Shown here piece after piece: positions 666-59,429 of a stretch of 64,000 nt of DNA (within the stretch, counting starts at the first letter, position 1; every line of letters starts with the position of its first letter). A program made the translations under genes and the position numbers. The notes beneath the pieces are model-generated. The model worked only from the letters and a program-made list of their open reading frames with translations. It ran no database searches and was not told the origin of the DNA. Location: the NCBI RefSeq assembly GCF_053078305.1, contig NZ_CP166879.1, one strand, 5' to 3'.

Positions 666-666
666 C

Positions 667-18005: not shown

Positions 18006-18007
18006 GG

Positions 18008-39531: not shown

Positions 39532-40009
39532 AATAAATCACCTTACAGTTACAACAGGTCAAAAACCGCTGTAGCCAGAGTTACGCTGGCCTGATGCTTT
39601 AGCATCGGGCTTCGTCAAATAATCCAGAATCCAGACGTGCCAATAAGCGCTGATACTGCTCAGGGAAATCAGGAGCATTAATATCCTGGATGTCACGTCC
39701 ATTAGCAGGGAAATGAACAATGCAGCCCCCTGGATTAACTATGCAGAAATCATCCTGAGGCACTGATAAATACGGAGAGGACTCTCGCGTATGGTTGATT
39801 GACACCACAGTGCGAATTCGGCGGATGCGAGATCACGGTACGATTCCGCACCACACTACCAATCAATACCCCGGGTTTTATTCAGGTAAGCAGGACTGCG
39901 GATATCCGGTGTCGCGCCGTTGTGTCACGAACGGGGTGGGTGCGAAACACCGGATAAAATACAGGTTGGCAATACCTCTGAACGCCCTGCGCAGAGCGGG
40001 GATTTCGGA

Positions 40010-40816
40010 TTAAGTACTCGCACCTCCGCAGTCCTCAAACAAGTCTGGCTGGTAGCTGTAAACAGACTTCGTACATACCGCTCTGCAATAAATCCCCGTA
40101 CCACAGGCCTCACAGAACTTCTTCCCATGAAAAAACTGCTCACACATCACACAATGCCACTCCAGCACGACCGATAATGGCGATAAAAACATCGCCATAT
40201 CCTCAATGTAAGGGTGGGACTTTTCCGGATTCAGCACCACACAGTCCGCCTTCTGTTGCTCACTCAGGGCATGTAAATCATGCTCAAACCATGCCCCCTG
40301 AGCATCTGTCTGCAGAATCAACCGGCCATGGCAGGAAAGGCAGAAACAATGCCGGATATTTCTGCTGAGCGCAGAGTCGGCACTGATAATGTGTTCACCC
40401 GGCGTGATCCCCAGCCCCGTTTTTATACCGTTCATTCTGCTACCCCCCTCCTCACTGAAGCGTCCGGTCTGGCAGTGTGTGCAGTACCGCTCCCCATAAT
40501 AATCGTGGTGACATTGTCTGCAGTGCCAGCTGGCTTTACGCACCACGGGTAAGGCATCCGGGACGAATTGCTGCAGACGTTTAATCAACTGTATTTCTCT
40601 GCGTTCCGGCCTGACATAAGGACATTGCTGCGCGTGCTCCGTCAGCCCTTCGTCAGCGTGTTCAAACCAGGGCCGTTCAGTGTCGTATTGCGGGTGGTAT
40701 CTGAGTGCACTGCCGCAAAGGTGGCAGGTGTAGCGGTCGTAAGGCGCAGTCTGTGCGGTACGGGCCCCCGTCAGACGTCCGTTGCCATCAAGAGCGAGAA
40801 AGGATTTTGCGTACAT
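40010..40816 (-). CDS. cysteine-rich protein with multiple CxxC pairs (putative zinc-ribbon protein)
   Basis: 268 aa; at least eight CxxC pairs (CHLCG, CRQCHH, CTHCQ, CLSCHG, CVMCE, CEACG and others) with conserved spacing. Confidence 0.5.
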   Translation of the reverse strand: MYAKSFLALDGNGRLTGARTAQTAPYDRYTCHLCGSALRYHPQYDTERPWFEHADEGLTEHAQQCPYVRPERREIQLIKRLQQFVPDALPVVRKASWHCRQCHHDYYGERYCTHCQTGRFSEEGGSRMNGIKTGLGITPGEHIISADSALSRNIRHCFCLSCHGRLILQTDAQGAWFEHDLHALSEQQKADCVVLNPEKSHPYIEDMAMFLSPLSVVLEWHCVMCEQFFHGKKFCEACGTGIYCRAVCTKSVYSYQPDLFEDCGGAST

Positions 40817-41075
40817 AGTATATATTCCTCAGCCGCCAGACGACACGCAGGCAACAGCCGTCCAGGTACGGGCAGCGTGGTCAGGTGTGAATGGCGGTTC
40901 AGTTAAAATCTGGACTGGAGTTTGGGTAAAGCAGGCTGGTTGCTGTTACAGCACTGTGGTTGTCACACAATGGCCCACTGACGTAAAAAACAGTCAGTGG
41001 GCGAGTGGATACATCGTTGCCGCCAGACAACAACCCATACTTTTGGTTTGCCGGGTATTGGTGCGCCTGTCGTGT

Positions 41076-41645
41076 TCAACTCCGGCTACAGCCAAAATTG
41101 CGCTCACCGGTGCCGCGAGCTTTGGTATGCTCCTTCGCCAGATAGCCAGAACGTTCCAGCACCTGCTGAAAGCCGGTTTCATCATCGCGTTCCAGCCACA
41201 CCGCTGGCTTGTCAGGAAAATGTGCCAGCGTGTCATAACGTCCGGCATCCACTCCCAGGGCACTGCACCAGGCCTGTTTAATAATCCCGGCCAGTGACCC
41301 CGGAGCGCGGTAATCGCCGGCACGACACCAGGTATCCCGGTTGACCAGCAGCAGCAGGTGATAGTGTTTTTTGCCTTTAAGCTCCCCGAACTCCCGGGCC
41401 CAGGCGTAATGCAGGGTCGAGGAATGCACGCGTTTACCTTCCCGATGCTTACGTTTCTGGTAAGCGTCGATTCGGGCTTTCAGGGCATTGATGAAGCGGG
41501 ATATCACAGCCGCGTCCGTTGCTGCCGGTACATCCGGGAGACGCAGATCAACCCGCAATGCCGTCAGACGGGGATGAACATCCAGTGCGTGCCGCACCGT
41601 CTCACGAATACGTTGCTGCCAGAAGGGGTTGTATTTGTAGGTCAT
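41076..41645 (-). CDS. YagK/YfjJ-family (inovirus Gp2-like) protein, copy 2
   Basis: 189 aa; paralog of 38965-39531. Confidence 0.6.
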   Translation of the reverse strand: MTYKYNPFWQQRIRETVRHALDVHPRLTALRVDLRLPDVPAATDAAVISRFINALKARIDAYQKRKHREGKRVHSSTLHYAWAREFGELKGKKHYHLLLLVNRDTWCRAGDYRAPGSLAGIIKQAWCSALGVDAGRYDTLAHFPDKPAVWLERDDETGFQQVLERSGYLAKEHTKARGTGERNFGCSRS

Positions 41646-41849
41646 GGTTAAATCTCCGTATGGTTTCGTTCATACGGATTAACCACGCCGTAAAAAATGC
41701 GCAGAGTCCCTGAAGTGATCTCCAACCAGGCAATATCTCAGGCACTCTGAGATAACCCGAACGGTCGTCTCCGGACTGACGGTTGAATTTTCAGCGTTGT
41801 TTTTTTAATGTAAAAAACCGATTACGGATAAGGCTGTGAGGAGGGAGTT

Positions 41850-42050
41850 ATGGTGATACGCAAAAAGAAGTGCTGGGACTGTGGAAACGCGATTACTCAT
41901 AATACTGTGTGTTGCCCGTATTGTGGTTCTGTCGACCCCTTCGGCTATTACCGGAATACAGACCGTATCGTTACTATACTGCTGGCACTGATTATTGTGG
42001 TCCTGCTGACTACTGTCAGCGTCAGTGTGTATATACTGTGTAGCTGGTGA
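41850..42050 (+). CDS. small zinc-ribbon membrane protein
   Basis: 66 aa; CWDCG...CCPYCG motif followed by one hydrophobic helix; GAGGAGGGAG upstream. Confidence 0.4.
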   Translation: MVIRKKKCWDCGNAITHNTVCCPYCGSVDPFGYYRNTDRIVTILLALIIVVLLTTVSVSVYILCSW

Positions 42051-43372
42051 GATAACGGTTCATGTATCCCCTGAGCTGACAGTGTACCGGGTATATTAAG
42101 CGTAACCGACAGGTTCTCCTTCATACCATATTAAATTTTTCCAGGTATTGCCGCTGCCTTATTTCGTCTCATACAGGAAAACTCGTCTGGGTTTCTGACA
42201 AATACGTGAAACTCACAGCCCCTCAATATCAACCACACGCTGTAAGCCGGTAATACCTGAAAATCAGCCCATTACCGCCCACGCCTCCGGCACCATTCCC
42301 TTTAGATTTCGAATTCTTTGTTGTCGCTATACCGCTTAACGTTCCCGGTATTATCCTGGTTCCCGACAACAGGAACATATTCAGCTTTTAATAACCTGAG
42401 AAGAGCCAATAAGAATCACAAAGCGGATAACACCTGGCGCGATGCAGTTGTGATTACCGAACGCTCAGATGACATATTTCCAGACTGAAGCGGGAACACG
42501 ATCGTAAAGCTTGTTCATTGTCAGTTCTGCCAGCCAGTGATCAACCACAGAGTTGAAGGCTTCCAGTTCCGCAGAGGTAAGTTTATAACGCGTGTGGGAA
42601 ATCACTTTTTCCAGCGTCTCCCGGGATGAACAACGACGGAACTGCTTTGGTTTTAACTTCCATTAGCCTCTCATCACTTTATGCTGCAATTAACGTGATA
42701 CTGTCAGCATACCGCCAGACTGGCATTCTGGTACCCACCCCAAACTCATTACTCCCGAGCCACCACTTAACCGGTCTCTCAGACTGTCACTCACCAGGTC
42801 GGATATGTTTACCGCTCAGACGGATGCTTAATGCACTCTGTTCACGTACATTGCAGATACGTTTTATATACGCGGGTTATACGCCAGCTATCAGGGATAG
42901 CGCAGTCTGTTGCTACTGCGTTCTCATCATGCCCACTGATCACACTCACCGTGTTTATTTCACATATATGAACTCATGTATTTGATCTCATGTGTTTGAT
43001 CTCTCTTATATATTTATAATACCAATCAGACAGTCTTATCCCATCGGTGATACCTGTCACCTGCCCACCGGACACGGTCTGCCCCATCGTAACCGCCCCG
43101 TAAATAACTCTGCAATTATCAGAACGCCAGTTTTCCCCTCTTCCTCACGAAAATCATCCCTTCTTTATCGCGCGCGCGTGCGGAAGCATCGTTTCGTAAC
43201 AACCACCCGGCATACCGGTACGGCTCAGCCACCGTAACCTCCCCGTTTATCTCCTGGCGGTCACATTCCCGATTATTTTTTACGTTTCTCCCCGGTTGTT
43301 ATGCCGGTGAAGGTGGTGCGTTGTTTTCATGACCACACCGGCTGGTTTAACAACATCCGGAGGAACATTCTC

Positions 43373-43579
43373 ATGATCACCCCAGTTTCACTGATGGATG
43401 ACCAGATGGTCGACATGGCATTTATCACTCAACTGACCGGCCTGACCGATAAGTGGTTTTACAAACTCATCAAGGATGGTGACTTTCCTGCGCCCATCAA
43501 AATGGGCCGCAGCTCCCGATGGCTGAAAAGCGAAGTGGAAGCCTGGCTGCAGGCGCGTATTGCACAGTCCCGTCCGTAA
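43373..43579 (+). CDS. alpA: AlpA-family phage/island regulatory protein (copy 2)
   Basis: 68 aa from the ATG at 43373 with GGAGG upstream; TDKWFYKLIKDGDFPAPIKMGRSSRWLKSEVEAWL. Confidence 0.7.
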   Translation: MITPVSLMDDQMVDMAFITQLTGLTDKWFYKLIKDGDFPAPIKMGRSSRWLKSEVEAWLQARIAQSRP

Positions 43580-43659
43580 TTCTTAACCGTTCATCTGCAG
43601 CAGACGCAGTCTCCGGCCTGCCGGCGGCGTTCTGCTGCCTGTTATCCCCCGTGAGGAAT

Positions 43660-44268
43660 ATGAAAATGAAACCACAGTATCAGACCCGTTACGAGCTGCT
43701 CCACGAAAGCTACCAGAAATGGCTGACCGGCTTCACCCGGCACGCCGTATCCTGGGGCGTGTGTCATCCGAATATCTACTACTTCCATAATCTGACGCCC
43801 GGGTGGGTGTCATTCAATGGTGAAAAACCGGAGATTGCCATCGTACCCCAGAGTCTGCACCGGCTGATGTATGGTCCGGACAAACGGACCACGCCGCCCC
43901 TGGATGATGATCTGATAGTGAATTTATGCACCAGTGAACATCTGCTGGTTCATCATCCGATGCTGGAAGGCATTCTCCTGTCTGAATGTGAACGTCTGAG
44001 GCAGCGTTCGCTGGCAAATAAACTGATCAGCCTCTTCCGTCAGTTTGGTGGCACGGAGTTGCGCCTCAAACTGGTCTGGCTTTGCTGGCTTGATTTAATG
44101 ACCGGAAACTGCCTTGACGACTGGACGGAGAATCTGAAACGGAAATCAGAAAAAGAGCTGGAGGAATGGATCATCAACCGTCAGAAGCAGAGCGCAGCAC
44201 TGACGGATCTGATGGATCAGTACGTGCTCCTGGCATACCGCACAACGGTTGACGATAAGCGCACCTGA
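43660..44268 (+). CDS. hypothetical protein
   Basis: 202 aa from the ATG at 43660 with GAGGAA upstream; no family recognised. Confidence 0.45.
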   Translation: MKMKPQYQTRYELLHESYQKWLTGFTRHAVSWGVCHPNIYYFHNLTPGWVSFNGEKPEIAIVPQSLHRLMYGPDKRTTPPLDDDLIVNLCTSEHLLVHHPMLEGILLSECERLRQRSLANKLISLFRQFGGTELRLKLVWLCWLDLMTGNCLDDWTENLKRKSEKELEEWIINRQKQSAALTDLMDQYVLLAYRTTVDDKRT

Positions 44269-44589
44269 TGCCAGTTGTTTCAGGGAAGCTGGTATCCGGG
44301 CAGGGTGCCAGGGCTGACTGAACGGCCTGTCTGCCTGCCGTTTCGCTCTCCGTGCGTTCTGTCACACGCTGCACCTGAACGCCGGACTGCGGGCACGCAG
44401 ACAGGAAAGACGCAGGCTGGAACTTCTGACCGGCGGGTATCAGTTATATGCCTGTTGATTCATCACCACCACGCAGTTCCTGAGCTTTAGTTCATCACCG
44501 ATATTCATACATCTGAATATCGGTGATGAAATCCCCATAATAATCAATCATCTAAGTCTGAAGCATAATAGAGAAAAACTGCTCACCGG

Positions 44590-46143
44590 TTACTTCGCTC
44601 TCAGCTTATTGTAGTGATAACCCGAGGTAAAAATACCAGAGACATCAGACAACTTTAAACTGGCTATCTGGGGAAGCAGAACATACATGGTTTTTCCTTC
44701 CGGCACGACAGAAAGCCTGAACTGAGATTCAAGAATGTTCAGCAATGCGTTCAGTTTTTTCCTGTTTCTGAACCGGCCCGGGCCACACTGGAGAATATAA
44801 TTTTTCCTGACACGGGGCGGGCATTCTCCGCGGCACTCCTCAATGAGCCAGTCGAACAGCTCCTCGGCGTCCTTCTGCTGCAGTTCAGATTCATTAGGTA
44901 ACGCAAATAATTTTTTATATTCATCTGTGTACCACGAACTTATTACGACAGCAGACGTCATGATATCGGCAGAGATTTTCCCTTCACCATAGCTGAAATA
45001 CTGAAATAACGCTGCAATTCTTGCAATGTTTTCTGTTTTTTTTGAAACATGTCCCCGAAACGGGCTTAAGGGTCCGGAAGGGGATAAATCCTGCTCCAGA
45101 ACATTATAGTGCTCAATAAATATTTTTTGCGCTTCAGGCGAAAAATGCAGACAATACCGTTCATCCTCACTGGATTTTTCAATACTGCCTCTGGCCAGTT
45201 CCATTAATCGTTCATGAAATGCCGTTAATGATCCTCCCGGAATCACAGCTCCATTAATAAAGCGTTTCCCCTGCGTGGTTGCAGGTTTACTGATAAGACA
45301 ACGGGCAAGAAAACCACTGTCCCTGGCAACAGAACCTTTTCGCTCCATATATCGGTCAAAAAGACCGGGTTGCACCATGAGGGATAACGTCATTCTGGCA
45401 TTTTCAATCATCTGTTCGGGTTCATTCTTTCTGTCCACAGACAATACAGAGCCATCCCACATTTTGTTAATAAAAGGCAACTCAGACAGGGTATATCCAT
45501 CAAATATAATACCGGCTTCATCTGACATAATACCCACTGAACGCCATTTACCACAAAGCTGATTCTTAATTGCCGCAGTCGTGGCATCATTAAAAATGAA
45601 TTTATACCTCACAGGTTCTTCCGCACTGTTTTTCTGAAGTACTTCCAGTTGTCTGAGGGTTTCTGACTCATCCGCGCCTTTGCGGAGTTCTTTATTCAGT
45701 TTTGACAACAATGCTTTTTTCTGAGCCTTTAAAAGCTCTTCCTTGTTTTTCCAGACAGCCAGTTCACTTTTGTATCTGGAATATAACTGCATCTCCTGCT
45801 GGTACAGGGGCTTCATTAATAATTTGTCCACTGCGGTTTTTCGTTCTCCGGACTCGGCAAGCGTCAGGAAAAAAAGAGAGACCGGCCCCCGCAGTGTATT
45901 CAGTCTGCAGACATCAATCAGATTCTGGCAGACAAGTGAAACAGCGCCCAGGGCAGACGCTGCCACAAGCCCAAGGGGAGCCTGCGTAATTTGCTGAGCT
46001 TCAATAACGGCATCACGAATGAGTGGAGGCAGCGAACTCAGGGGAAACTCATCACAAGGCTGACCGAATGACATAGTAACCTCACTACACACAGATATAA
46101 AAGTACTGCAATTCTGGCTATTAATAGCAAAAATAGCAGTCAA
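44590..46143 (-). CDS. hypothetical protein (possibly YfjI-like island protein)
   Basis: 517 aa ORF (494 aa if started at the internal MSFGQP); convergent with the preceding gene; family unverified. Confidence 0.5.
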   Translation of the reverse strand: MTAIFAINSQNCSTFISVCSEVTMSFGQPCDEFPLSSLPPLIRDAVIEAQQITQAPLGLVAASALGAVSLVCQNLIDVCRLNTLRGPVSLFFLTLAESGERKTAVDKLLMKPLYQQEMQLYSRYKSELAVWKNKEELLKAQKKALLSKLNKELRKGADESETLRQLEVLQKNSAEEPVRYKFIFNDATTAAIKNQLCGKWRSVGIMSDEAGIIFDGYTLSELPFINKMWDGSVLSVDRKNEPEQMIENARMTLSLMVQPGLFDRYMERKGSVARDSGFLARCLISKPATTQGKRFINGAVIPGGSLTAFHERLMELARGSIEKSSEDERYCLHFSPEAQKIFIEHYNVLEQDLSPSGPLSPFRGHVSKKTENIARIAALFQYFSYGEGKISADIMTSAVVISSWYTDEYKKLFALPNESELQQKDAEELFDWLIEECRGECPPRVRKNYILQCGPGRFRNRKKLNALLNILESQFRLSVVPEGKTMYVLLPQIASLKLSDVSGIFTSGYHYNKLRAK

Positions 46144-47303
46144 ATCAATATGAGGTAAAAATTTTTGTTGCTTTAATGGTTAAATAATAACCACAGTGTG
46201 TTTTGCTGCTGAAGAAAGACAAAATGAATCTGTGTGTCCCCTCCTTCCCTTCAGAGCACATCCACTATTCAAATTTTACACAACCACGTACGAACAAAAA
46301 GCATCATCCCGGGTATTGCAGATACCGGTTTCCTGCCGGGAAGAATCATAAACAGAACACCGGGAATAACGCCTTCAGGAATCCCCCCCTCCTGAAGAAG
46401 AATAAAATAAAGAAGACTACAGTTCCTGCACTGAATGCTGAGTACAATATTCTATGGACAGGATGACATATTTATAAATAACAAAAACCATTTAATACTG
46501 ATACATCAATAAAATACTTCCTCCCTGCTGACGCAGATAAAATGCACCATTTTTTCTTCAAATACTTCTGTATAATCGCCAGCCAATGATGAGAATGGAT
46601 TAAAATAACACTTCTTCGACAAACACAAAAACAGCCTTCATTTTACATCATCATCCAGTTTCAGTTAACCCCGGACGAGCGACAGCGTTTCAGTACAGGA
46701 ATTAAAAGCCAGCTTTTGCTCAGTAAAAACACACTCAACTAATAATATCTCAGCAGATATTATCCTGACCAGGACACCTCACATTACTGAATTCTCTTCC
46801 GACAGTATCACTGCACAAATAAAAAAGAACTGGATAAATATTCAGACCGGAAGAATGGTGTCACAAAAGCATTTAATCATTACGCATGACCAGGAAGGGA
46901 AACACTTAACCACATGGTATCAACAGATATCATTACGTGTGCACTCTTATAAAAAACACACAGAAGAAGTAAGATAATTATAAACGTAAATTTAATATCT
47001 CCCACTGACATCTCCCCCACAATACACTGAAAAATACTCACAGCAGTAAACACAGACACACCTGATAATCATGCAGCCGATAAATATTTTCCCCTTTACG
47101 GAGAAATCAGCCTGCTGTTTAACAATAACGGCGTATTTTCATGGAAGGAGATCACCCAGTAACGGATAAGTCCTGATCTCCTTCATGTTAATACGCAACA
47201 ATCCCATCGATTCAAAACAATTTCAGACAGATATTATCTCCGTGAATCCCCCGCCACCTTTCCGGTGCGCGGGGTTTTGTCTTTTTTCACCGGGAATACA
47301 TGT

Positions 47304-48176
47304 ATGAATCCGTCTGATGCCATTGAGGCAATTGAAAAACCGCTCTCCTCCCTGCCTTACTCGCTTTCCCGTCACATCCTGGAACATCTGCGCAAACTCA
47401 CCCGTCACGAACCAGTGATTGGCATTATGGGTAAAAGCGGGGCCGGTAAATCCTCACTCTGTAATGCACTGTTTCAGGGGGAGGTCACCCCGGTCAGTGA
47501 TGTTCACACCGGCACCCGGGAAGTACGGCGCTTCCGTCTGAGTGGCCACGGTCACAGCATGGTTATCACTGACCTGCCCGGGGTGGGCGAGAGCCGGGAC
47601 AGGGATGCAGAGTATGAGGCCCTGTACCGTGACATTCTGCCTGAACTGGACCTGGTACTGTGGCTGATTAAAGCCGATGACCGTGCCCTGTCTGTGGATG
47701 AGTATTTCTGGCGACACATCCTGCACCGGGGACATCAGCGGGTACTGTTTGTGGTGACGCAGGCCGACAAAACGGAGCCCTGCCATGAATGGGATATGGC
47801 CGGTATTCAGCCTTCTCCTGCACAGGCACAGAATATTCGCGAAAAAACGGAGGCGGTATTCCGTCTGTTCCGGCCCGTACATCCGGTTGTGGCCGTATCG
47901 GCCCGCACCGGCTGGGAACTGGATACGCTGGTCAGTGCGCTCATGACAGCGCTTCCCGACCATGCCGCCAGTCCCCTGATGACCCGACTGCAGGACGAGC
48001 TGCGCACGGAATCTGTCCGGTCTCAGGCCCGTGAACAGTTTACCGGTGCGGTGGACCGGATATTTGACACGGCGGAGAGCGTCTGTATTGCCTCTGTTGC
48101 ACGCACGGTTCTGCGTGCCGTCCGTGACTCGGTGGTCTCTGTTGCCCGCGCTGTATGGAACTGGATTTTCTTCTGA
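47304..48176 (+). CDS. yeeP: YeeP/YkfA-family GTPase
   Basis: P-loop GKSGAGKSS and DxxG-type motif (DLPGVGE); track start is GTG, ATG at 47304 preferred; gene directly upstream of flu as in CP4-44. Confidence 0.7.
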   Translation: MNPSDAIEAIEKPLSSLPYSLSRHILEHLRKLTRHEPVIGIMGKSGAGKSSLCNALFQGEVTPVSDVHTGTREVRRFRLSGHGHSMVITDLPGVGESRDRDAEYEALYRDILPELDLVLWLIKADDRALSVDEYFWRHILHRGHQRVLFVVTQADKTEPCHEWDMAGIQPSPAQAQNIREKTEAVFRLFRPVHPVVAVSARTGWELDTLVSALMTALPDHAASPLMTRLQDELRTESVRSQAREQFTGAVDRIFDTAESVCIASVARTVLRAVRDSVVSVARAVWNWIFF

Positions 48177-48289
48177 ACACTCTGCCAGGGGAAATGCCTG
48201 ATTACATTGCGTTAACCAACTGAAAACATGACACAAACCCCTCATCCCCCTCCTGTTTCTCTTGCGTGACCGCTCTGCTGTCAATAGAA

Positions 48290-48335
48290 TAAAACGATCG
48301 ATAAAACAGGTATCGATCGTTACTATCGATCGTTT
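48290..48335. promoter_or_regulatory. antigen 43 phase-variation switch region (three GATC sites; expected OxyR-binding region)
   Basis: GATC at 48296, 48315 and 48328 in the sequence ACGATCGATAAAACAGGTATCGATCGTTACTATCGATCG, about 220-250 bp upstream of the flu start. Confidence 0.6.
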
Positions 48336-48548
48336 ATAGTGGTTAATGGTCTGCGAAAAGGCAGCTGAATCTCTTCATCATGCAGAACGGAATTGCACAC
48401 AACGGACTGATACTTCTCTGGCGGATGAGAGAGGGGAAGCATTTATGTCCGGGAAAAACCACTTTATCTGACCATGCTGTTTTGTACCTGCCGGTATCCA
48501 CATTTGTGGGTACCGGCTTTTTTATTCACCCTCTGTAAGGAAAAGCTG

Positions 48549-51500
48549 ATGAAACGACATCTGAACACCAGCTACAGGCTGGTATGGAATCACATTACGG
48601 GCACCCTGGTGGTGGCCTCCGAACTGGCCCGCTCACGGGGAAAACGCGCCGGTGTGGCGGTTGCGCTGTCTCTTGCTGCTGTCACATCAGTCCCGGCACT
48701 GGCTGCTGACACGGTTGTACAGGCGGGAGAAACCGTGAACGACGGAACACTGACAAATCATGACAACCAGATTGTCTTCGGTACGGCCAACGGAATGACC
48801 ATCAGTACCGGGCTGGAACTGGGGCCGGACAGTGAAGAAAACACCGGTGGGCAATGGATACAGAATGGCGGGATAGCCGGAAACACCACTGTCACCACAA
48901 ATGGTCGTCAGGTCGTGCTGGAGGGGGGAACAGCCAGTGATACGGTTATTCGTGACGGCGGGGGACAGAGCCTGAACGGGCTGGCGGTGAACACCACGCT
49001 GAATAACAGAGGCGAGCAGTGGGTTCATGAGGGCGGGGTTGCCACCGGTACAATTATCAACCGCGACGGTTACCAGAGCGTTAAAAGTGGCGGGCTGGCA
49101 ACAGGAACCATCATCAACACCGGCGCAGAAGGCGGCCCGGATTCTGACAACTCGTACACGGGTCAGAAGGTCCAGGGAACAGCAGAATCCACCACCATCA
49201 ACAAAAATGGACGGCAGATTATCTTATTTTCCGGGATAGCCCGTGACACTCTCATTTACGCAGGTGGTGACCAGTCGGTACACGGAAGGGCCCTGAATAC
49301 CACACTGAATGGCGGTTACCAGTATGTGCACAAGGACGGACTTGCGCTGAACACGGTAATTAACGAGGGGGGCTGGCAGGTTGTTAAGGCAGGTGGTGCT
49401 GTCGGTAACACCACCATAAATCAGAACGGTGAACTGAGGGTACATGCCGGCGGGGAAGCCACTGCAGTCACCCAGAACACGGGCGGTGCACTGGTTACCA
49501 GTACGGCTGCAACCGTTACCGGCATAAACCGCCTTGGAGCATTCTCGGTTGTGGAGGGTAAAGCTGATAATGTCGTACTGGAAAATGGCGGACGCCTGGA
49601 TGTGCTGACCGGACACACAGCCACTAATACCCGCGTGGATGATGGCGGAACGCTGGATGTCCGCAACGGTGGTACCGCCACCACCGTATCCATGGGAAAT
49701 GGCGGTGTACTGCTGGCCGATTCCGGTGCCGCTGTCAGTGGTACACGGAGCGACGGAAAGGCATTCAGTATCGGAGGCGGTCAGGCGGATGCCCTGATGC
49801 TGGAAAAAGGCAGTTCATTCACGCTGAACGTCGGTGATACGGCCACGGATACCACGGTAAATGGCGGACTGTTCACCGCCAGGGGCGGCACACTGGCGGG
49901 CACCACCACGCTGAATAACGGCGCCATACTTACCCTTTCCGGGAAGACGGTGAACAACAATACCCTGACCATCCGTGAAGGCGATGCACTCCTGCAGGGA
50001 GGCTCTCTCACCGGTAACGGCAGCGTGGAAAAATCAGGAAGTGGCACACTCACTGTCAGCAACACCACACTCACCCAGAAAGCCGTCAACCTGAATGAAG
50101 GCACGCTGACGCTGAACGACAGTACCGTCACCACGGATGTCATTGCTCAGCGCGGTACAGCCCTGAAGCTGACCGGCAGCACTGTGCTGAACGGTGCCAT
50201 TGACCCCACGAATGTCACTCTCGCCTCCGGTGCCACCTGGAATATCCCTGATAACGCCACGGTGCAGTCGGTGGTGGATGACCTCAGCCATGCCGGACAG
50301 ATTCATTTCACCTCCACCCGCACAGGGAAGTTCGTACCGGCAACCCTGAAAGTGAAAAACCTGAACGGGCAGAATGGCACCATCAGCCTGCGTGTACGCC
50401 CGGATATGGCACAGAGCAATGCTGACAGACTGGTCATTGACGGCGGCAGGGCAACCGGAAAAACCATCCTGAACCTGGTGAACGCCGGCAACAGTGCGTC
50501 GGGGCTGGCGACCAGCGGTAAGGGTATTCAGGTGGTGGAAGCCATTAACGGTGCCACCACGGAGGAAGGGGCCTTTGTCCAGGGGAACAGGCTGCAGGCC
50601 GGGGCCTTTAACTACTCCCTCAACCGGGACAGTGATGAGAGCTGGTATCTGCGCAGTGAAAATGCTTATCGTGCAGAAGTCCCCCTGTATGCCTCCATGC
50701 TGACACAGGCAATGGACTATGACCGGATTCTGGCAGGCTCCCGCAGCCATCAGACCGGTGTAAATGGTGAAAACAACAGCGTCCGTCTCAGCATTCAGGG
50801 CGGCCATCTCGGTCACGATAACAACGGCGGTATTGTCCGTGGGGCCACGCCGGAAAGCAGCGGCAGCTATGGCTTCGTCCGTCTTGAGGGTGACCTGCTC
50901 AGAACAGAGGTCGCCGGTATGTCTCTGACGACAGGGGTGTATGGTGCTGCAGGCCATTCTTCCGTTGATGTTAAGGATGATGACAGCTCCCGTGCCGGCA
51001 CGGTCCGGGATGATGCCGGCAGCCTGGGCGGATACCTGAATCTGATACACAACGCCTCCGGACTGTGGGCTGACATTGTGGCCCAGGGAACCCGCCACAG
51101 CATGAAAGCCTCATCGGACAATCACGACTTCCGCGCACGGGGCCGGGGCTGGCTGGGCTCACTGGAAACCGGTCTGCCCTTCAGTATCACTGACAACCTG
51201 ATGCTGGAGCCACAACTGCAGTACACCTGGCAGGGACTTTCCCTGGATGACGGTAAGGACAACGCCGGTTATGTGAAGTTCGGGCATGGCAGTGCACAAC
51301 ATGTGCGTGCCGGATTTCGTCTGGGCAGCCACAACGATATGAACTTTGGTAAAGGCACCTCATCCCGTGACACCCTGCGCGGCAGTGCCAAACACAGTGT
51401 GCGTGAACTGCCGGTGAACTGGTGGGTACAGCCTTCTGTTATCCGCACCTTCAGTTCCCGGGGGGACATGAGCATGGGTACAGCCGCAGCCGGCAGTAAC

Positions 51501-51671
51501 ATGACGTTCTCACCGTCACAGAATGGTACGTCACTGGACCTGCAGGCCGGACTGGAAGCCCGTGTCCGGGAAAACATCACCCTGGGCGTTCAGGCTGGTT
51601 ATGTCCACAGCGTCAGCGGCAGCAGCGCTGAAGGCTATAACGGTCAGGCCACGCTGAATGTGACCTTCTGA
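48549..51671 (+). CDS. flu: antigen 43 self-associating autotransporter
   Basis: 1039 aa from the ATG at 48549; extended signal peptide MKRHLNTSYRLVWNHITGTL...ALAADTVV; beta-helical repeat passenger; C-terminal beta-barrel ending QATLNVTF. Confidence 0.9.
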   Translation: MKRHLNTSYRLVWNHITGTLVVASELARSRGKRAGVAVALSLAAVTSVPALAADTVVQAGETVNDGTLTNHDNQIVFGTANGMTISTGLELGPDSEENTGGQWIQNGGIAGNTTVTTNGRQVVLEGGTASDTVIRDGGGQSLNGLAVNTTLNNRGEQWVHEGGVATGTIINRDGYQSVKSGGLATGTIINTGAEGGPDSDNSYTGQKVQGTAESTTINKNGRQIILFSGIARDTLIYAGGDQSVHGRALNTTLNGGYQYVHKDGLALNTVINEGGWQVVKAGGAVGNTTINQNGELRVHAGGEATAVTQNTGGALVTSTAATVTGINRLGAFSVVEGKADNVVLENGGRLDVLTGHTATNTRVDDGGTLDVRNGGTATTVSMGNGGVLLADSGAAVSGTRSDGKAFSIGGGQADALMLEKGSSFTLNVGDTATDTTVNGGLFTARGGTLAGTTTLNNGAILTLSGKTVNNNTLTIREGDALLQGGSLTGNGSVEKSGSGTLTVSNTTLTQKAVNLNEGTLTLNDSTVTTDVIAQRGTALKLTGSTVLNGAIDPTNVTLASGATWNIPDNATVQSVVDDLSHAGQIHFTSTRTGKFVPATLKVKNLNGQNGTISLRVRPDMAQSNADRLVIDGGRATGKTILNLVNAGNSASGLATSGKGIQVVEAINGATTEEGAFVQGNRLQAGAFNYSLNRDSDESWYLRSENAYRAEVPLYASMLTQAMDYDRILAGSRSHQTGVNGENNSVRLSIQGGHLGHDNNGGIVRGATPESSGSYGFVRLEGDLLRTEVAGMSLTTGVYGAAGHSSVDVKDDDSSRAGTVRDDAGSLGGYLNLIHNASGLWADIVAQGTRHSMKASSDNHDFRARGRGWLGSLETGLPFSITDNLMLEPQLQYTWQGLSLDDGKDNAGYVKFGHGSAQHVRAGFRLGSHNDMNFGKGTSSRDTLRGSAKHSVRELPVNWWVQPSVIRTFSSRGDMSMGTAAAGSNMTFSPSQNGTSLDLQAGLEARVRENITLGVQAGYVHSVSGSSAEGYNGQATLNVTF

Positions 51672-51691
51672 CAGAACCATCGCCTCTCTGT

Positions 51692-51716
51692 GGTCCCGGT
51701 CATCATGACCGGGACC
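51692..51716 (+). terminator. GC-rich palindrome downstream of flu
   Basis: GGTCCCGGTCAT / ATGACCGGGACC near-perfect palindrome 20 nt after the flu stop; no clear T-tract, so terminator function is uncertain. Confidence 0.3.
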
Positions 51717-51785
51717 CGGACCGGCGCAACGGATATTCAACGCCACATTCGCTGGCATTAACAATAACATGATATTCATCACGGA

Positions 51786-54308
51786 GTGACTATGTTACAG
51801 ATAGTCGGCGCGCTGATCCTGCTGATCACAGGATTTGCCATTCTTCGCCTTTTGTTCAGAGCATTAATCAGCACGGCTTCTGCGCTGGCAGGGCTCATAT
51901 TGCTGTGTCTGTTCGGCCCGGCCTTACTGGCTGGCTATATCACCGAACGCATAACCCGGTTGTTCCATATTCGCTGGCTGGCAGGCGTATTTCTGACGAT
52001 TGCCGGAATGATCATCAGCTTCATGTGGGGACTTGATGGTAAACATATCGCGCTGGAGGCTCACACCTTTGACTCTGTGAAATTTATTCTGACCACTGCT
52101 CTCGCCGGTGGTCTGCTGGCTGTTCCCCTGCAGATCAAAAACATTCAGCAGAACGGGATCACACCAGAAGATATCAGCAAGGAAATTAACGGGTATTACT
52201 GCTGTTTTTATACTGCCTTTTTCCTTATGGCGTGTTCTGCATGCGCACCATTGATCGCGTTACAGTACGATATTTCACCGTCACTGATGTGGTGGGGCGG
52301 GTTGTTGTACTGGCTGGCTGCATTAGTGACGCTGCTATGGGCGGCCAGCCAGATCCAGGCGCTGAAAAAACTGACCTGTGCCATCAGCCAGACACTGGAA
52401 GAACAACCGGTGCTCAACAGTAAATCGTGGCTGACCAGTTTGCAAAACGATTACAGCCTTCCTGACTCACTGACGGAGCGCATCTGGCTGACGCTCATTT
52501 CTCAACGGATTTCCCGGGGAGAGCTGAGGGAATTTGAACTGGCAGACGGAAACTGGTTACTGAACAATGCCTGGTATGAAAGAAACATGGCAGGGTTTAA
52601 CGAACAGTTGAAAGAGAACCTGTCATTCACACCTGATGAACTGAAAACGCTCTTCCGGAACCGCCTGAATTTATCACCGGAAGCGAATGACGATTTTCTC
52701 GATCGTTGCCTGGACGGCGGTGACTGGTATCCCTTTTCAGAAGGTCGCCGTTTTGTATCATTCCATCACGTGGATGAGCTTCGTATCTGTGCCTCCTGCG
52801 GGCTGACAGAAGTACATCATGCCCCGGAAAATCATAAGCCGGATCCGGAATGGTACTGCTCCTCTCTTTGTCGCGAAACAGAAACACTGTGTCAGGAAAT
52901 TTATGAACGCCCTTACAACAGCTTTATTTCCGATGCAACGGCGAATGGTCTGATTCTCATGAAACTGCCGGAAACCTGGAGTACAAATGAGAAAATGTTT
53001 GCTTCCGGAGGGCAGGGACATGGGTTTGCCGCTGAACGGGGAAACCATATTGTCGACAGAGTCCGTCTGAAAAACGCACGGATCCTCGGTGATAATAATG
53101 CCAGAAATGGAGCAGACAGACTGGTCAGCGGAACAGAAATCCAGACGAAATATTGTTCAACTGCAGCCCGTAGCGTCGGTGCGGCATTCGACGGACAAAA
53201 CGGACAGTATCGTTACATGGGAAATAATGGCCCCATGCAACTGGAAGTCCCCCGTGATCAGTATGCCGGCGCTGTTGAAACCATGAGGAATAAGATCCGC
53301 GAAGGTAAAGTACCCGGTGTAACCGATCCCGCAGAAGCGTCCCGGCTGATTCGTCGGGGACATCTGACTTATACTCAGGCCCGTAATATCACCCGGTTCG
53401 GGACCATCGAATCGGTCACTTATGATATTGCCGAGGGGTCGGTTGTCAGTCTGGCGGCCGGAGGGATCAGTTTTGCCCTGACGGCATCGATCTTCTGGCT
53501 CAGCACCGGCGATCGCGATGCTGCCCTGCAGACAGCTGCTGTCCAGGCAGGAAAAACCTTCACCCGCACACTGGCTGTCTACGTCACAACCCAGCAACTT
53601 CACCGGCTCACTGTTGTTCAGGGTATGCTGAAGCATATTGATTTTTCGACGGCCAGCCCGACTGTCCGGCAGGCGCTTCAGAAGGGGACCGGTGCAGGAA
53701 ATATCAGTGCCCTGAACAAAGTGATGAAGGGTACGCTGGTGACATCTCTGGCACTGGTAGCTGTCACAACCGGCCCTGACATGATCAAAATGTTGCGGGG
53801 ACGGATCTCCGGTGCGCAGTTCATCAGGAATCTTGCCGTGGCATCTTCCGGTGTGGCAGGTGGTGCTGTCGGGTCAGTGGCGGGCGGGATATTGTTCAGT
53901 CCACTGGGACCATTTGGTGCACTGACAGGGCGTGTGGTTGGCGGTGTTCTGGGGGGAATGATTGCCTCCGCTGTATCAGGAAAAATTGCCGGAGCGCTGG
54001 TTGAAGAAGATCGCGTCAAAATTCTGGCAATGATTCAGGAGCAGGTGACATGGCTTGCCGGCAGTTTCCTGCTGACCGGACATGAGATTGAAAATCTGAA
54101 CGCGAATCTGGCCCGTGTTATCGATCAGAATGCTCTGGAGATCATTTTCGCCGCCGGTATACAACAACGGGCCGCGACCAATATGTTAATCAAACCACTG
54201 GTGGTCAGTATCATCAGGCAACGCCCCGTCATGGAATATGATGCATCCCATCTCGGCAATATGGTTAACCGACTGGAAGAAGCATTACCCCCGGAGTTAC
54301 CGGCATAA
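51786..54308 (+). CDS. yeeR: inner membrane protein, YeeR-like
   Basis: 840 aa with multiple N-terminal TM helices and a Gly-rich C-terminal membrane region; position after flu corresponds to yeeR of CP4-44. Confidence 0.55.
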   Translation: MTMLQIVGALILLITGFAILRLLFRALISTASALAGLILLCLFGPALLAGYITERITRLFHIRWLAGVFLTIAGMIISFMWGLDGKHIALEAHTFDSVKFILTTALAGGLLAVPLQIKNIQQNGITPEDISKEINGYYCCFYTAFFLMACSACAPLIALQYDISPSLMWWGGLLYWLAALVTLLWAASQIQALKKLTCAISQTLEEQPVLNSKSWLTSLQNDYSLPDSLTERIWLTLISQRISRGELREFELADGNWLLNNAWYERNMAGFNEQLKENLSFTPDELKTLFRNRLNLSPEANDDFLDRCLDGGDWYPFSEGRRFVSFHHVDELRICASCGLTEVHHAPENHKPDPEWYCSSLCRETETLCQEIYERPYNSFISDATANGLILMKLPETWSTNEKMFASGGQGHGFAAERGNHIVDRVRLKNARILGDNNARNGADRLVSGTEIQTKYCSTAARSVGAAFDGQNGQYRYMGNNGPMQLEVPRDQYAGAVETMRNKIREGKVPGVTDPAEASRLIRRGHLTYTQARNITRFGTIESVTYDIAEGSVVSLAAGGISFALTASIFWLSTGDRDAALQTAAVQAGKTFTRTLAVYVTTQQLHRLTVVQGMLKHIDFSTASPTVRQALQKGTGAGNISALNKVMKGTLVTSLALVAVTTGPDMIKMLRGRISGAQFIRNLAVASSGVAGGAVGSVAGGILFSPLGPFGALTGRVVGGVLGGMIASAVSGKIAGALVEEDRVKILAMIQEQVTWLAGSFLLTGHEIENLNANLARVIDQNALEIIFAAGIQQRAATNMLIKPLVVSIIRQRPVMEYDASHLGNMVNRLEEALPPELPA

Positions 54309-54383
54309 CGGCTATTCTGCGCCTTTTACGCTTTATCACCTGATTTGTCAGTGTCATCGTCATGACTCAGAGAGGTAAATACC

Positions 54384-54839
54384 ATGATTCACCTGTTCAA
54401 AACCTGCATGATTACCGCCTTCATTCTGGGGTTAACGTGGTCTGCCCCACTCCGGGCACAGGATCAACGTTACATCAGTATACGCAATACAGATACGATA
54501 TGGCTCCCGGGAAATATTTGTGCTTACCAGTTCCGGCTGGATAATGGCGGAAACGATGAAGGATTTGGCCCCCTCACCATCACTCTGCAACTCAAAGACA
54601 AATATGGTCAGACGCTGGTGACCAGAAAAATGGAAACGGAAGCTTTTGGTGACAGTAATGCCACGCGAACCACAGACGCATTTCTGGAAACGGAGTGCGT
54701 GGAAAATGTCGCCACAACCGAAATCATTAAAGCAACTGAAGAAAGTAACGGCCATCGTGTCAGTCTGCCGTTATCGGTTTTCAATCCCCAGGACTACCAT
54801 CCACTGCTGATTACCGTTTCCGGAAAAAACGTTAACTGA
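54384..54839 (+). CDS. putative periplasmic protein
   Basis: 151 aa with N-terminal signal peptide (MIHLFKTCMITAFILGLTWSAPLRA). Confidence 0.45.
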   Translation: MIHLFKTCMITAFILGLTWSAPLRAQDQRYISIRNTDTIWLPGNICAYQFRLDNGGNDEGFGPLTITLQLKDKYGQTLVTRKMETEAFGDSNATRTTDAFLETECVENVATTEIIKATEESNGHRVSLPLSVFNPQDYHPLLITVSGKNVN

Positions 54840-54917
54840 TCCCTGAAGTCAGTTTCATGCTTCAGCCTCTGTCACAACGCGTGGCAGAGGCTTTTTATTT
54901 ATCAGGAGAAAACAGAT

Positions 54918-55151
54918 ATGCCGGGTTACACAGAGTATGTCCTGGCTGAAGGATCTTTCTCATACGGGCAGGCGGTTGCTGTCATAACCGCTTACCGCAA
55001 TGTGTTTATCCAGGATGACCCGGGAATGCATTTCCGTCGGGTTATCCGCAACGCGGAAGGTCAGCGACGCTGGCGCTGCCGGAATTCTGAACCCGATGCC
55101 GGAAAGGTGCTTAATACGCGGCTCGCCAGTGACGGTCTTCTCAGACAATAA
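54918..55151 (+). CDS. hypothetical small protein (DUF905-like island protein)
   Basis: 77 aa ORF at the position where small DUF905-type genes occur in CP4-like islands; assignment from recollection. Confidence 0.4.
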
Positions 55152-55250
55152 ACGTCATTCATTTCACCCATCAGGCCGCGTCTTCTCCGGGAGACGTGGC
55201 TTTTTCATTTATTACACCAGTAAATCTTAACCACCGATAAGGAGCAAATT

Positions 55251-56069
55251 ATGCGACTAGCCAGTCGTTTTGGTTATGCGAACCAGATACGCCGTGACCA
55301 TCCGCTGACACACGAAGAACTGATGCACTATGTGCCGGGGATTTTCGGGGAAGATAAACACACGTCCCGAAGCCAGAACTATACGTACATCCCCACCATC
55401 ACCGTACTGGAAAGCCTGCAGCGGGAAGGCTTTCAGCCATTCTTCGCCTGCCAGACCCGTGTGCGCGACCCGGGCCGCCGGGGATACACAAAACACATGC
55501 TGCGTCTGCGGCGGGCCGGAGAGATAAACGGAGAACATGTCCCTGAAATTATTCTGCTCAACTCTCATGACGGTACCTCCAGCTACCAGATGCTGCCGGG
55601 TTACTTCAGGTTCGTCTGCCAGAACGGATGCGTCTGTGGTCAGTCTCTGGGGGAAGTGCGTGTTCCGCACCGGGGAAATGTGGTGGACAGAGTCATTGAA
55701 GGGGCTTACGAGGTGGTGGGGGTTTTTGACCGGATTGAGGAAAAGCGTGATGCCATGCAGTCGCTGATTCTGCCGCCACCGGCACGCCAGGCGCTGGCAC
55801 AGGCGGCACTGACTTACCGTTATGGTGACGAACATCAGCCCGTCACCACCGCCGACATTCTGACGCCACGACGCCGGGAGGATTACGGTAAGGACCTGTG
55901 GAGTGCTTATCAGACCATTCAGGAGAATATGCTGAAAGGCGGAATTTCAGGTCGCAGCGCTAAAGGAAAACGTATCCATACCCGTGCCATTCACAGCATT
56001 GACACTGACATTAAGCTCAACCGCGCATTGTGGGTGATGGCGGAAACGCTGCTGGAGAGCCTGCGCTGA
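55251..56069 (+). CDS. YafZ-like (DUF932) protein
   Basis: 272 aa; size and position (before the antirestriction and radC-like genes) match yafZ-type genes. Confidence 0.6.
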   Translation: MRLASRFGYANQIRRDHPLTHEELMHYVPGIFGEDKHTSRSQNYTYIPTITVLESLQREGFQPFFACQTRVRDPGRRGYTKHMLRLRRAGEINGEHVPEIILLNSHDGTSSYQMLPGYFRFVCQNGCVCGQSLGEVRVPHRGNVVDRVIEGAYEVVGVFDRIEEKRDAMQSLILPPPARQALAQAALTYRYGDEHQPVTTADILTPRRREDYGKDLWSAYQTIQENMLKGGISGRSAKGKRIHTRAIHSIDTDIKLNRALWVMAETLLESLR

Positions 56070-56123
56070 TTCAGCCATTACCCTGAAAACCACGCATTTA
56101 TTTGTCCTTTAAGGAGTCATTTC

Positions 56124-56609
56124 ATGAAAACCATTTCACATAATTCCACCACATCTTCTGTTTCCGTAACCGCTGCATCAGGGAATGACCAGCCTCAGTT
56201 GGTTGCCAGCCTCGTCCCTGATGAACAGCGCATCAGCTTCTGGCCGCAGCATTTTGGCCTCATTCCACAGTGGGTGACCCTGGAGTCCCGGGTCTTCGGC
56301 TGGATGGACCGTCTGTATGAAGACTACTGCGGTGGTATCTGGAATCTGTACACCCTGAACAACGGTGGCGCATTTATGGCACCCGAACCGGATGACGATG
56401 ATGACGAAACATGGGTGCTGTTTAACGTCATGAACGGTAACCGCGCTGAAATGAGCCCGGAAGCCGCCGGCATTGCCGCCTGTCTGATGGCGTACAGCCA
56501 TCACGCCTGTCGTACAGAGAATTATGCCATGACGGTTCATTATTACCGGCTGCGGGATTATGCCCTGCAGCATCCGGAATGCAGCGCCATTATGCGCATC
56601 ATCGACTGA
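56124..56609 (+). CDS. antirestriction protein (KlcA/ArdB-like; YfjX/YafX family)
   Basis: 161 aa; acidic stretch EPDDDDDETW; canonical position upstream of the radC-like gene. Confidence 0.65.
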   Translation: MKTISHNSTTSSVSVTAASGNDQPQLVASLVPDEQRISFWPQHFGLIPQWVTLESRVFGWMDRLYEDYCGGIWNLYTLNNGGAFMAPEPDDDDDETWVLFNVMNGNRAEMSPEAAGIAACLMAYSHHACRTENYAMTVHYYRLRDYALQHPECSAIMRIID

Positions 56610-56624
56610 ATGGAGGCAGGGACA

Positions 56625-57101
56625 ATGCAGCAGCTTTCCTTTCTGCCCGGAGAGATGACGCCCGGCGAGCGCAGCCTCATTCAGCGGGCCCTGAAAACCC
56701 TGGACCGCCATCTTCATGAACCCGGCGTGGCCTTCACCTCCACCCGTGCGGCACGGGAATGGCTGATTCTGAACATGGCGGGACTGGAGCGTGAAGAATT
56801 CCGGGTGCTGTATCTGAATAACCAGAATCAACTGATTGCCGGTGAAACCCTCTTCACCGGCACCATCAACCGCACGGAAGTCCATCCCCGGGAAGTGATT
56901 AAACGCGCCCTGTACCACAATGCCGCTGCCGTGGTGCTGGCGCACAATCACCCGTCCGGTGAAGTCACACCCAGCAAGGCAGACCGCCTTATCACGGAAC
57001 GTCTGGTACAGGCACTGGGCCTGGTGGATATCCGGGTGCCGGACCATCTGATAGTCGGTGGCAACCAGGTTTTCTCCTTTGCCGAACATGGTCTGCTTTA
57101 A
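56625..57101 (+). CDS. yeeS: RadC-like JAB-domain protein (YeeS/YfjY/YkfG family)
   Basis: JAMM-type motif HNHPSG preceded by a conserved Glu; about 158 aa from the ATG at 56625. Confidence 0.8.
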   Translation: MQQLSFLPGEMTPGERSLIQRALKTLDRHLHEPGVAFTSTRAAREWLILNMAGLEREEFRVLYLNNQNQLIAGETLFTGTINRTEVHPREVIKRALYHNAAAVVLAHNHPSGEVTPSKADRLITERLVQALGLVDIRVPDHLIVGGNQVFSFAEHGLL

Positions 57102-57163
57102 CCCGTCACAACCACATCACGCTTGTTTTCACTTTTATCTTCTGTCTTCAGAGGTATCACACT

Positions 57164-57385
57164 ATGAAAATCATCACCCGTGGTGAAGCCATGCGTATTC
57201 ACCAACAACATCCGGCATCCCGTCTTTTTCCTTTCTGTACCGGCAAATACCGCTGGCACGGCAGTGCTGAGGCGTATACCGGTCGTGAAGTGCAGGATAT
57301 TCCCGGTGTGCTGGCCGTGTTTGCTGAACGCCGTAAGGACAGTTTTGGCCCGTATGTCCGGCTGATGAGCGTCACCCTGAACTGA
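57164..57385 (+). CDS. yeeT: YeeT-like (DUF987) protein
   Basis: 73 aa; position between the radC-like gene and the cbeA/cbtA pair. Confidence 0.6.
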   Translation: MKIITRGEAMRIHQQHPASRLFPFCTGKYRWHGSAEAYTGREVQDIPGVLAVFAERRKDSFGPYVRLMSVTLN

Positions 57386-57403
57386 ATCAGGACGGGCATT
57401 CAG

Positions 57404-58048
57404 ATGAGCAGAATTATCACCTCCACCGTGTATACACTGAATGAGCTATCCGCCACCGCACGGGAAAAAGCCCGCGACGGGTACCGTCAGCATCATGCTG
57501 ACAGCAACTGGTATGAAAACGTGTATGAAGACTTCAGGAAGGTCTGTGACATTTTCGGGATTGACCTCCGCCAGCGCGTTTTCCAGCTCAGCAACGGCAG
57601 GTTTATGGAAGAGCCGTGCATCTGGTTCAGCGGATTCTGCAGCCAGGGGGACGGAGCCTGTTTTGAAGGACGCTGGCACTGGCAGTCAGCAACAGCCAGG
57701 ATAATCCGGGAGTATGCCCCGCAGGACCGTGAGCTTCATCGTATCGCGGATGCCCTGCAGGCGGTGCAGAAGCGTAACTTCTGGCAACTGCAGGCTGAAA
57801 TCCACCACCGGGGACGCTACTGCCATCCGTACAGCATGGATATCACCGTCACCCGGAACAGTCCGACTGGTCAGATAATGACAACCGATGCGGAAGCCGC
57901 TGTCAGCGAAGCCCTGCGCGACCTGGCCTTCTGGCTGTACCGTCAACTGGAAAACGAGTACGACTGGCTGACCTCAGATGCCACTGTGGATGAGGCCCTT
58001 CTCATCAACGAATACACCTTTACCGAAGCCGGTCTGCGCGCCGGCTGA
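57404..58048 (+). CDS. hypothetical protein inserted between yeeT and cbeA
   Basis: 214 aa ORF with ATG start 18 nt after the yeeT stop; codon usage like its neighbours; not recognised by me as part of the canonical yeeS-yeeT-cbeA-cbtA set. Confidence 0.45.
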   Translation: MSRIITSTVYTLNELSATAREKARDGYRQHHADSNWYENVYEDFRKVCDIFGIDLRQRVFQLSNGRFMEEPCIWFSGFCSQGDGACFEGRWHWQSATARIIREYAPQDRELHRIADALQAVQKRNFWQLQAEIHHRGRYCHPYSMDITVTRNSPTGQIMTTDAEAAVSEALRDLAFWLYRQLENEYDWLTSDATVDEALLINEYTFTEAGLRAG

Positions 58049-58097
58049 CCCGTCATCGTTAAACTATCATTCACCGATTTTCTGTGAGGATTTTATC

Positions 58098-58466: not shown

Positions 58467-58555
58467 ACCACCAGAATAAACCTCTGCTACTGCCCGGTGC
58501 ACCACAGCACCATTCTCCTCAAAATTTAATCGCTCATATCAGGAAAATCTTCATT

Positions 58556-59418: not shown

Positions 59419-59429
59419 CCAGAAACAAC

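Follow-up and report, generated by a model that had tools for sequence, protein, structure and literature searches.

A probable agn43-type Dam/OxyR phase-variation switch with an attenuating leader in the yeeP-flu spacer of Escherichia coli

Described switches and the organization of the locus

For the agn43 switch of E. coli K-12, located between yeeP and flu, competition between Dam and OxyR at three GATC sites is the mechanism established in the literature. Switches of this type are defined by a reversible and heritable choice between ON and OFF, with dam mutants locked OFF and oxyR mutants locked ON. The same two proteins operate the gtr and opvAB switches of Salmonella. In gtr, the two arms of a half-site each hold a GATC, at a distance of 13 bp, and in opvAB the centers of adjacent half-sites lie 32 bp apart, a distance called canonical; in both systems the three or four half-sites are placed 5′ of the promoter and can be occupied alternatively, and OxyR serves as an activator as well. 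The pap-type switches use Lrp and PapI at two GATC boxes 102 bp apart, and heritable methylation patterns of promoter GATCs decide between ON and OFF, as in agn43-type switches.

The DNA analyzed here (the window) comprises 64,000 nt of contig NZ_CP166879.1 (assembly GCF_053078305.1). The spacer at 48177–48548 was shown to be the exact intergenic gap between the stop codon of a yeeP-like GTPase gene (48176) and the ATG of flu (48549). This spacer showed the same position as the K-12 switch, the same −10 hexamer, three GATCs with the same 19/13-bp spacing, two OxyR half-sites 32 bp apart, the same terminator and ribosome-binding site, and the same downstream gene family, except that it belongs to a different allele family and has TTGCGT as −35 hexamer where K-12 has TTGTCC. 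The 13-bp distance between the GATCs of a single half-site, found in gtr, and the 32-bp distance between half-sites, found in opvAB, were both present. A layout of the gtr/opvAB type, with at least three half-sites upstream of the promoter, was not found: the window has two half-sites scoring at least 8/10 at the canonical spacing, and these overlap the −10 hexamer and the start site, so that OxyR would be expected to act purely as a repressor here. Neither was an arrangement like that of pap present, since the GATCs of this spacer span 36 bp.

The genes and the terminator-like site around the spacer were as follows:

47265..48176, plus strand: yeeP-like GTPase gene (mechanical ORF; likely start ATG at 47304, for a product of 290 aa like that of annotated homologues)
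48549..51671, plus strand: flu/agn43, intact Ag43 autotransporter gene (1040 aa) with ESPR signal, AIDA repeats, autochaperone and beta-barrel domains (Pfam)
51786..54308, plus strand: yeeR-like gene, full-length ORF (~838–840 aa) with a homologue at the same position in VG38, CFT073 and EC958
54384..54839, plus strand: irmA, encoding the interleukin-receptor mimic protein (Pfam PF18673 IrmA, 2e-37)
54864..54892, plus strand: first strong terminator-like hairpin 3′ of the switch, directly after irmA

The gene 3′ of the switch codes for an Ag43-family autotransporter: its product scored 1878.6 bits against the NCBIfam auto_Ag43 equivalog (cut-off 1200) and showed 89% identity to K-12 Flu over the full length. 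The yeeP-like product matched Pfam MMR_HSR1 (1e-14), and its homologues are annotated as "GTPase family protein" (873 bp). In contrast to K-12, which has a yeeP pseudogene (426 bp), a shorter yeeR (510 aa) and no irmA, the window contained intact yeeP-like (~290 aa), yeeR-like and irmA genes. A scan downstream of the switch detected no terminator-like site from flu to the end of irmA, and flu, the yeeR-like gene and irmA are probably co-transcribed, with irmA as the last gene of the operon. In uropathogenic E. coli, agn43-yeeR-irmA has been described as an operon under OxyR control, and mutation of oxyR relieves its repression in CFT073, EC958 and 83972; deletion of oxyR in EC958 raised the agn43 transcript 121-fold and that of irmA 13-fold (PMC4807369).

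The surroundings were those of a CP4-44-like island, with genes for YfjI, GTPase, Ag43, DUF932, an antirestriction protein, RadC and CbeA/CbtA. A tRNA scan found no tRNA gene in the whole window, which places the attachment site of the island outside it. Neither dam nor oxyR lies within the window; both are presumably present in the host, which is E. coli. Upstream of the flu module, the region 20000–44000 contained microcin export genes (mchF, HlyD-family) and a tssC-like gene, according to the annotation of near-identical genomes.

Putative promoter, GATC sites and OxyR half-sites

The elements at the 5′ end of the transcription unit were assigned by homology to K-12 and by scanning for half-sites, with +1 placed at 48296:

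48262..48267, plus strand: −35 hexamer TTGCGT, assigned by homology only, separated from the −10 hexamer by 17 nt (K-12, TTGTCC)
48284..48298, plus strand: predicted OxyR half-site A, ATAGAATAAAACGAT, −12 to +3, 8/10, covering the −10 hexamer, the start site and GATC-I
48285..48290, plus strand: −10 hexamer TAGAAT, identical in K-12, overlapping the left arm of half-site A
48296..48299, plus strand: GATC-I, the G of which (48296) is the putative transcription start
48299..48315, plus strand: variable linker between the half-sites, CGATAAAACAGGTATCG, 17 nt (K-12 equivalent, CAATATCTATTTTATCG), the largest difference between the alleles
48315..48318, plus strand: GATC-II, +20
48316..48330, plus strand: predicted OxyR half-site B, ATCGTTACTATCGAT, +21 to +35, 8/10, with GATC-II and GATC-III in its two arms
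48328..48331, plus strand: GATC-III, +33

The initial annotation described three GATCs, 19 and 13 bp apart, in the flu leader, and these were found with starts at 48296, 48315 and 48328, at what by homology to K-12 is the extreme 5′ end of the leader. MG1655 has its GATCs at the homologous place with the same spacing (5318, 5337 and 5350 of the K-12 locus sequence, L001). The exact pattern GATC-N15-GATC-N9-GATC occurred once in the 64-kb window, and a match was seen in one of 100 dinucleotide-preserving shuffles (mean 0.01). The switch GATCs also formed the tightest GATC triplet of the window; under a Poisson model, 0.33 triplets of any arrangement spanning at most 32 bp would be expected per window.

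In K-12, isrC is annotated from the G of GATC-I onward, and agn43 transcription is also said to start at this G; +1 was therefore placed at 48296; the Rfam match described below starts at 48294. Among the sequences compared, AGAAT of the −10 region was invariant (18/18), and TCTTG was common to all E. coli alleles aligned. A generic promoter scan of the region did not flag the putative flu promoter. We do not read the missed call as evidence against a promoter, because the −35 hexamer of the proven K-12 promoter, as we read it, matches at 3/6 positions and would fail as well.

Half-sites were scanned for with the canonical OxyR half-site form ATAGnTnnnAnCTAT, which has 10 scored positions. A 10-nt consensus is also used for scoring in the opvAB study, and the gtr study gives a near-identical form. 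At least 8/10 was reached at just 24 positions of the window, and half-sites A and B, the centers of which are 32 bp apart, were the sole pair at this score spaced by 21–23 or 31–34 bp. K-12 has the same two half-sites with the same scores and the same spacing, and the sequence of half-site A is identical. A third 8/10 match (48312–48326) overlaps half-site B in a non-canonical register, and candidates in between reached at most 6/10. Substitutions destroying the half-sites, which had been named as a finding that would speak against an intact switch, were looked for, and both half-sites were shown to be undamaged, each at 8/10 as in K-12. The K-12 footprint of OxyR(C199S) reportedly extends from −16 to +42, which we take to correspond to 48280–48337 in the window, covering both half-sites.

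The GATC spacing follows from the geometry of two half-sites 32 bp apart with CGAT/ATCG arms: half-site B has its ATCG and CGAT arms 13 bp apart, and 19 bp is 32 minus 13 because GATC-I lies in the right arm of half-site A. This would explain why the half-sites persist in different allele families but the linker can change freely. A reading in a 22-bp register, with four adjacent grooves and all three GATCs in one 37-bp site, was also considered; in this register the window looks damaged, since it lacks the CTAT element of K-12. The damaged reading was dropped because the systematic scan gave the pair at −12 to +3 and +21 to +35 as better scoring and conserved.

Outside the switch, GATC was sparse. 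The three sites are isolated (47175–51815), the next GATC being 1121 bp upstream and 3519 bp downstream. The flu ORF contained no GATC compared to about eight expected (second-order Markov model), and the counts in flu of K-12, EC958 and CFT073 were 0, 1 and 2, respectively; the yeeR-like gene contained 21 compared to 15 expected. Speculatively, GATC-free surroundings could insulate the switch from processive Dam or SeqA. In the window as a whole, GATC was about two-fold under-represented (138 observed vs. about 262 expected under first- or second-order Markov models), with several GATC-free stretches of 5–7 kb (e.g., 12670–19716, 1–5528 and 54952–60300). This depletion fits that reported for E. 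coli genomic islands (PMC4659465).

Allele families of the spacer

A megablast comparison showed that K-12-type genomes align with the window spacer over its last 64 bp only. Of 5426 complete E. coli genomes, 3445 contained the full-length window-type spacer and 1781 the full-length K-12 spacer. These separate full-length matches divide the spacers into two allele families, of which the window carries the commoner one. The spacers upstream of c1273 in CFT073 and in EC958 were of the K-12 type and not of the window type. Over −16 to +42, the window differed from K-12 at 16/58 positions, concentrated at +4 to +19, and from CFT073 c1273 and EC958 at 14/58. The 58-bp core was identical in 773 complete E. 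coli genomes and had one or two mismatches in 2184 more. A 13-nt gap between GATC-I and GATC-II in a MAFFT pairwise alignment with K-12 was an artifact; the ungapped comparison gave identical spacing.

An alignment was made of 15 E. coli alleles of both families, taken from whole-spacer BLAST or from named strains, and three non-E. coli loci. It showed two conserved blocks, AA(T)AGAAT..AACGATC and GATCGT(T)..(T)ATCGATCG, separated by the variable 17-nt linker. Three GATCs were present in all 15 E. coli alleles, with 19/13 spacing in 14; half-site A at 8/10 was found in 14/15, half-site B in 14/15, and both in 13/15. With the three Citrobacter and Enterobacter loci added, each half-site was found at 8/10 in 17/18 sequences; the agreement of these three loci is partly by construction, as they were picked with a pattern fixing part of the core.

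Within the linker, the CTAT element of K-12 is replaced by AACA in the window. A half-site centered at +5 scored 6/10 in K-12 and below 6/10 in the window, and the K-12 CTAT element could serve a 22-bp-spaced binding mode of OxyR of the oxidized type. The linker also differs among K-12, CFT073 and EC958, all of which are repressed by OxyR. A search of the literature for experiments on the window-type (cah-type) spacer found none; the OxyR data that could be traced concern K-12, CFT073 c1273 and EC958 only, all of the K-12-type minority family.

Allele family and Ag43 passenger type assort independently, as seen by comparing the window with loci L004–L014. Window-type spacers precede 1040-aa Ag43 proteins (window, VG38 and O103 RM8385) and also Cah-type proteins of 948–949 aa (O157:H7, Nissle copy a, Res13 and PSS-10), and both spacer families are represented in Nissle 1917, by one copy each.

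The nearest relative of the flanking DNA was VG38-53E1, which is 99.8% identical to the window over 20000–44000. Its switch (11297–11332 of locus L003, homologous to 48296–48331) showed a 1-bp deletion resulting in 18/13 spacing, and its half-site B, ATCGTCACCATCGAT, scored 7/10. Mismatches between the window and VG38-53E1 peaked at 48000–48500 (25 per 500 bp, compared to 0–15 in most bins over 40000–57400). This pattern points to recombination or gene conversion in the regulatory region, or else to an assembly error in a homopolymer run; the variant switch indicates that the module is not immutable.

Leader, proposed operation and competing explanations

Between the switch and flu, the following features were recognized:

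48296..48523, plus strand: flu leader to the T-run of the terminator, ~228 nt, IsrC/IS102 homologue (Rfam RF00124; K-12 alignment)
48380..48538, plus strand: leader ORF of 52 codons, spanning the terminator hairpin, with its TAA stop codon 10 nt 5′ of the flu ATG and within the flu Shine-Dalgarno region
48474..48476, plus strand: ATG in frame with flu, upstream of the terminator and 25 codons before flu
48490..48523, plus strand: intrinsic terminator, hairpin GCCGGTATCCACATTTGTGGGTACCGGC of 12 pairs (48490–48517) followed by TTTTTT (terminator scan and RNA fold)
48537..48541, plus strand: flu Shine-Dalgarno AAGGA, 7 nt before the ATG, the same in K-12

The yeeP-flu spacer of K-12 also encodes isrC, which the initial annotation had mentioned without being able to confirm it here. 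An Rfam search now located it: IS102 (RF00124) matched 48294–48530 on the plus strand with 74.6 bits (gathering score 46; E = 1e-11 to 1e-10) over model positions 1–206 of 206, and was the sole Rfam family match in the whole window. The first ~43 model positions, with the GATC/OxyR region, and the last ~50, with the terminator, aligned well, and positions ~44–155 poorly, with two large insertions. The pairwise comparison with K-12 gave the same picture, the 5′ 40 nt and the 3′ terminator being conserved and the middle unalignable. The RNA would be ~228 nt in the window compared to 195 nt in K-12 (MG1655 b4435), both starting at GATC-I and ending at the conserved terminator, and the K-12 leader is 34 nt shorter. 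Folding of the whole leader was weakly better than that of shuffled sequences (z = −1.74; K-12, z = −4.82).

The terminator ends 26 nt 5′ of the flu ATG and differs from that of K-12 by one base, in the loop. Because it ends so close to flu, as in K-12, the IsrC homologue is best seen as a prematurely terminated flu leader rather than as the product of a separate gene. The K-12 start codon is reported to be preceded, at a distance of 28 bp, by a terminator that is functional, and this terminator in turn by an in-frame start codon with a stimulatory effect. The leader ORF of the window shares its frame with the upstream ORF of K-12, which is in frame with flu, but owing to a 2-bp difference from K-12 it stops at the TAA 10 nt short of flu. 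An ATG-initiated ORF crossing the terminator, and ending there or continuing in frame with flu, was found in 15/15 alleles examined. No obvious Shine-Dalgarno sequence was seen at the leader ORF ATGs, and no conserved leader peptide was found across the alleles: frames and starts differ, and the common property is an ORF that crosses the terminator. These ORFs lend weak support to a translation-assisted read-through.

By homology to K-12, transcription would start at the G of GATC-I (48296) from a sigma-70 promoter (TTGCGT, 17 nt, TAGAAT). With the GATCs unmethylated, an OxyR tetramer is predicted to bind half-sites A and B, where it would both block transcription and shield the GATCs from Dam, so that the OFF state would be inherited. 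Should Dam be the first to reach the GATCs after replication and methylate them, OxyR would be excluded and the ON state inherited. Transcripts would then cross a leader of ~250 nt, in which the terminator at 48490–48523 is expected to end some of them as an IsrC-like RNA of ~228 nt, and those reading through would form flu-yeeR-irmA mRNA. Translation of the leader ORF (48380–48538) across the hairpin may help this read-through.

The spacer is thus read as a complete agn43-type Dam/OxyR switch with an attenuating leader, and judged from its sequence elements it very probably works as a switch of this kind. The earlier claim that the switch is intact was borne out at the sequence level, as GATC spacing, −10 hexamer, promoter layout and half-sites are as in K-12 and the Ag43 gene is intact. 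Since the spacer is not the K-12 allele, "intact" refers here to the conservation of functional elements and not to near-identity with a tested allele. An alternative that we consider improbable is that the switch is present in an altered form, in which a change in OxyR affinity, DNA bending or leader control results in a strong bias or an effective lock in ON or OFF. The 16/58 footprint positions that differ from K-12, located at +4 to +19 with loss of CTAT, are consistent with such a change, as is the 34-nt longer leader with its unalignable middle, and in opvAB single-base changes in OxyR half-sites were shown to lock the phase (opvAB study). Half-sites A and B nevertheless keep the K-12 score and spacing, and the linker varies even among the OxyR-repressed alleles of K-12, CFT073 and EC958. 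Moreover, the allele belongs to the majority family, in which the core is highly conserved (773 identical genomes and 2184 within one or two mismatches), which argues for selection on a working element.

Far less likely still is that the RNA from 48296 to ~48523 is primarily an independent trans-acting sRNA gene (IsrC) and that flu has a separate expression signal. Rfam does class IS102 as gene/sRNA with a match above threshold here, RefSeq annotates isrC of MG1655 as ncRNA, and stabilized flu mRNA without the IsrC sequence was seen in one study. Against these points, the 5′ end of the RNA coincides with the flu promoter start and its 3′ end with a terminator that lies 26 nt short of the flu ATG, and there is no promoter-like site between this terminator and the ATG. 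What is conserved between the allele families is the two ends and not the body, which would hold the trans seed, and the literature describes an attenuated flu leader. That the GATC cluster arose by chance, or is merely palindromic and without regulatory role, is scarcely credible. The region is rich in ATCGAT palindromes, which generate GATC, and has inverted repeats at 48293–48321 and 48314–48332, but the shuffles give an expectation of 0.01 occurrences, and the cluster shares its position, its spacing and the flanking half-site sequence with the element defined by experiment in K-12. The element is also kept across diverged alleles and genera while the flanks diverge, and these conservation data effectively refute a chance origin.

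The reading preferred here, an agn43-type switch with attenuating leader, is that of a system already known: a textbook epigenetic switch, found in its usual context and as the allele that occurs most often. What goes beyond this is modest: the 19/13 spacing is explained by half-site geometry, and the traceable experiments were all done on the minority allele family. As the flu-yeeR-irmA operon is intact and probably phase-variable, expression of Ag43 and IrmA should vary within a clonal population, and phenotyping of the strain for aggregation or biofilm must allow for Ag43 heterogeneity.

It seems rather doubtful, although less so than the alternatives above, that the window-type (cah-type) allele is a functionally distinct variant, with the outer half-sites kept, the linker replaced with loss of CTAT, and an unrelated, longer leader body in which the upstream ORF terminates in the Shine-Dalgarno region of flu and does not fuse to flu, or that the module is a portable cassette. 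In the former case, switching rates or control of read-through could differ from those of K-12-type alleles. In the latter, related case, the promoter/OxyR/GATC module would be a cassette that fronts two small secreted proteins in Citrobacter and Enterobacter. A pattern scan of one genome per species detected the promoter and half-site module in Citrobacter braakii, Enterobacter wuhouensis and C. amalonaticus, with flanking sequence wholly different from that of E. coli. In these loci (C. braakii, 4551–5204 of L015; L017 and L018), promoter, half-site A, linker and half-site B follow a yeeP-like GTPase gene. Two small downstream ORFs of these loci gave no Pfam or NCBIfam match and, when compared with IrmA, no similarity. 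They encode proteins of 154 and 157 aa with signal peptides and follow a short leader in place of an Ag43 gene, and the switch module thus appears to be portable to other cargo.
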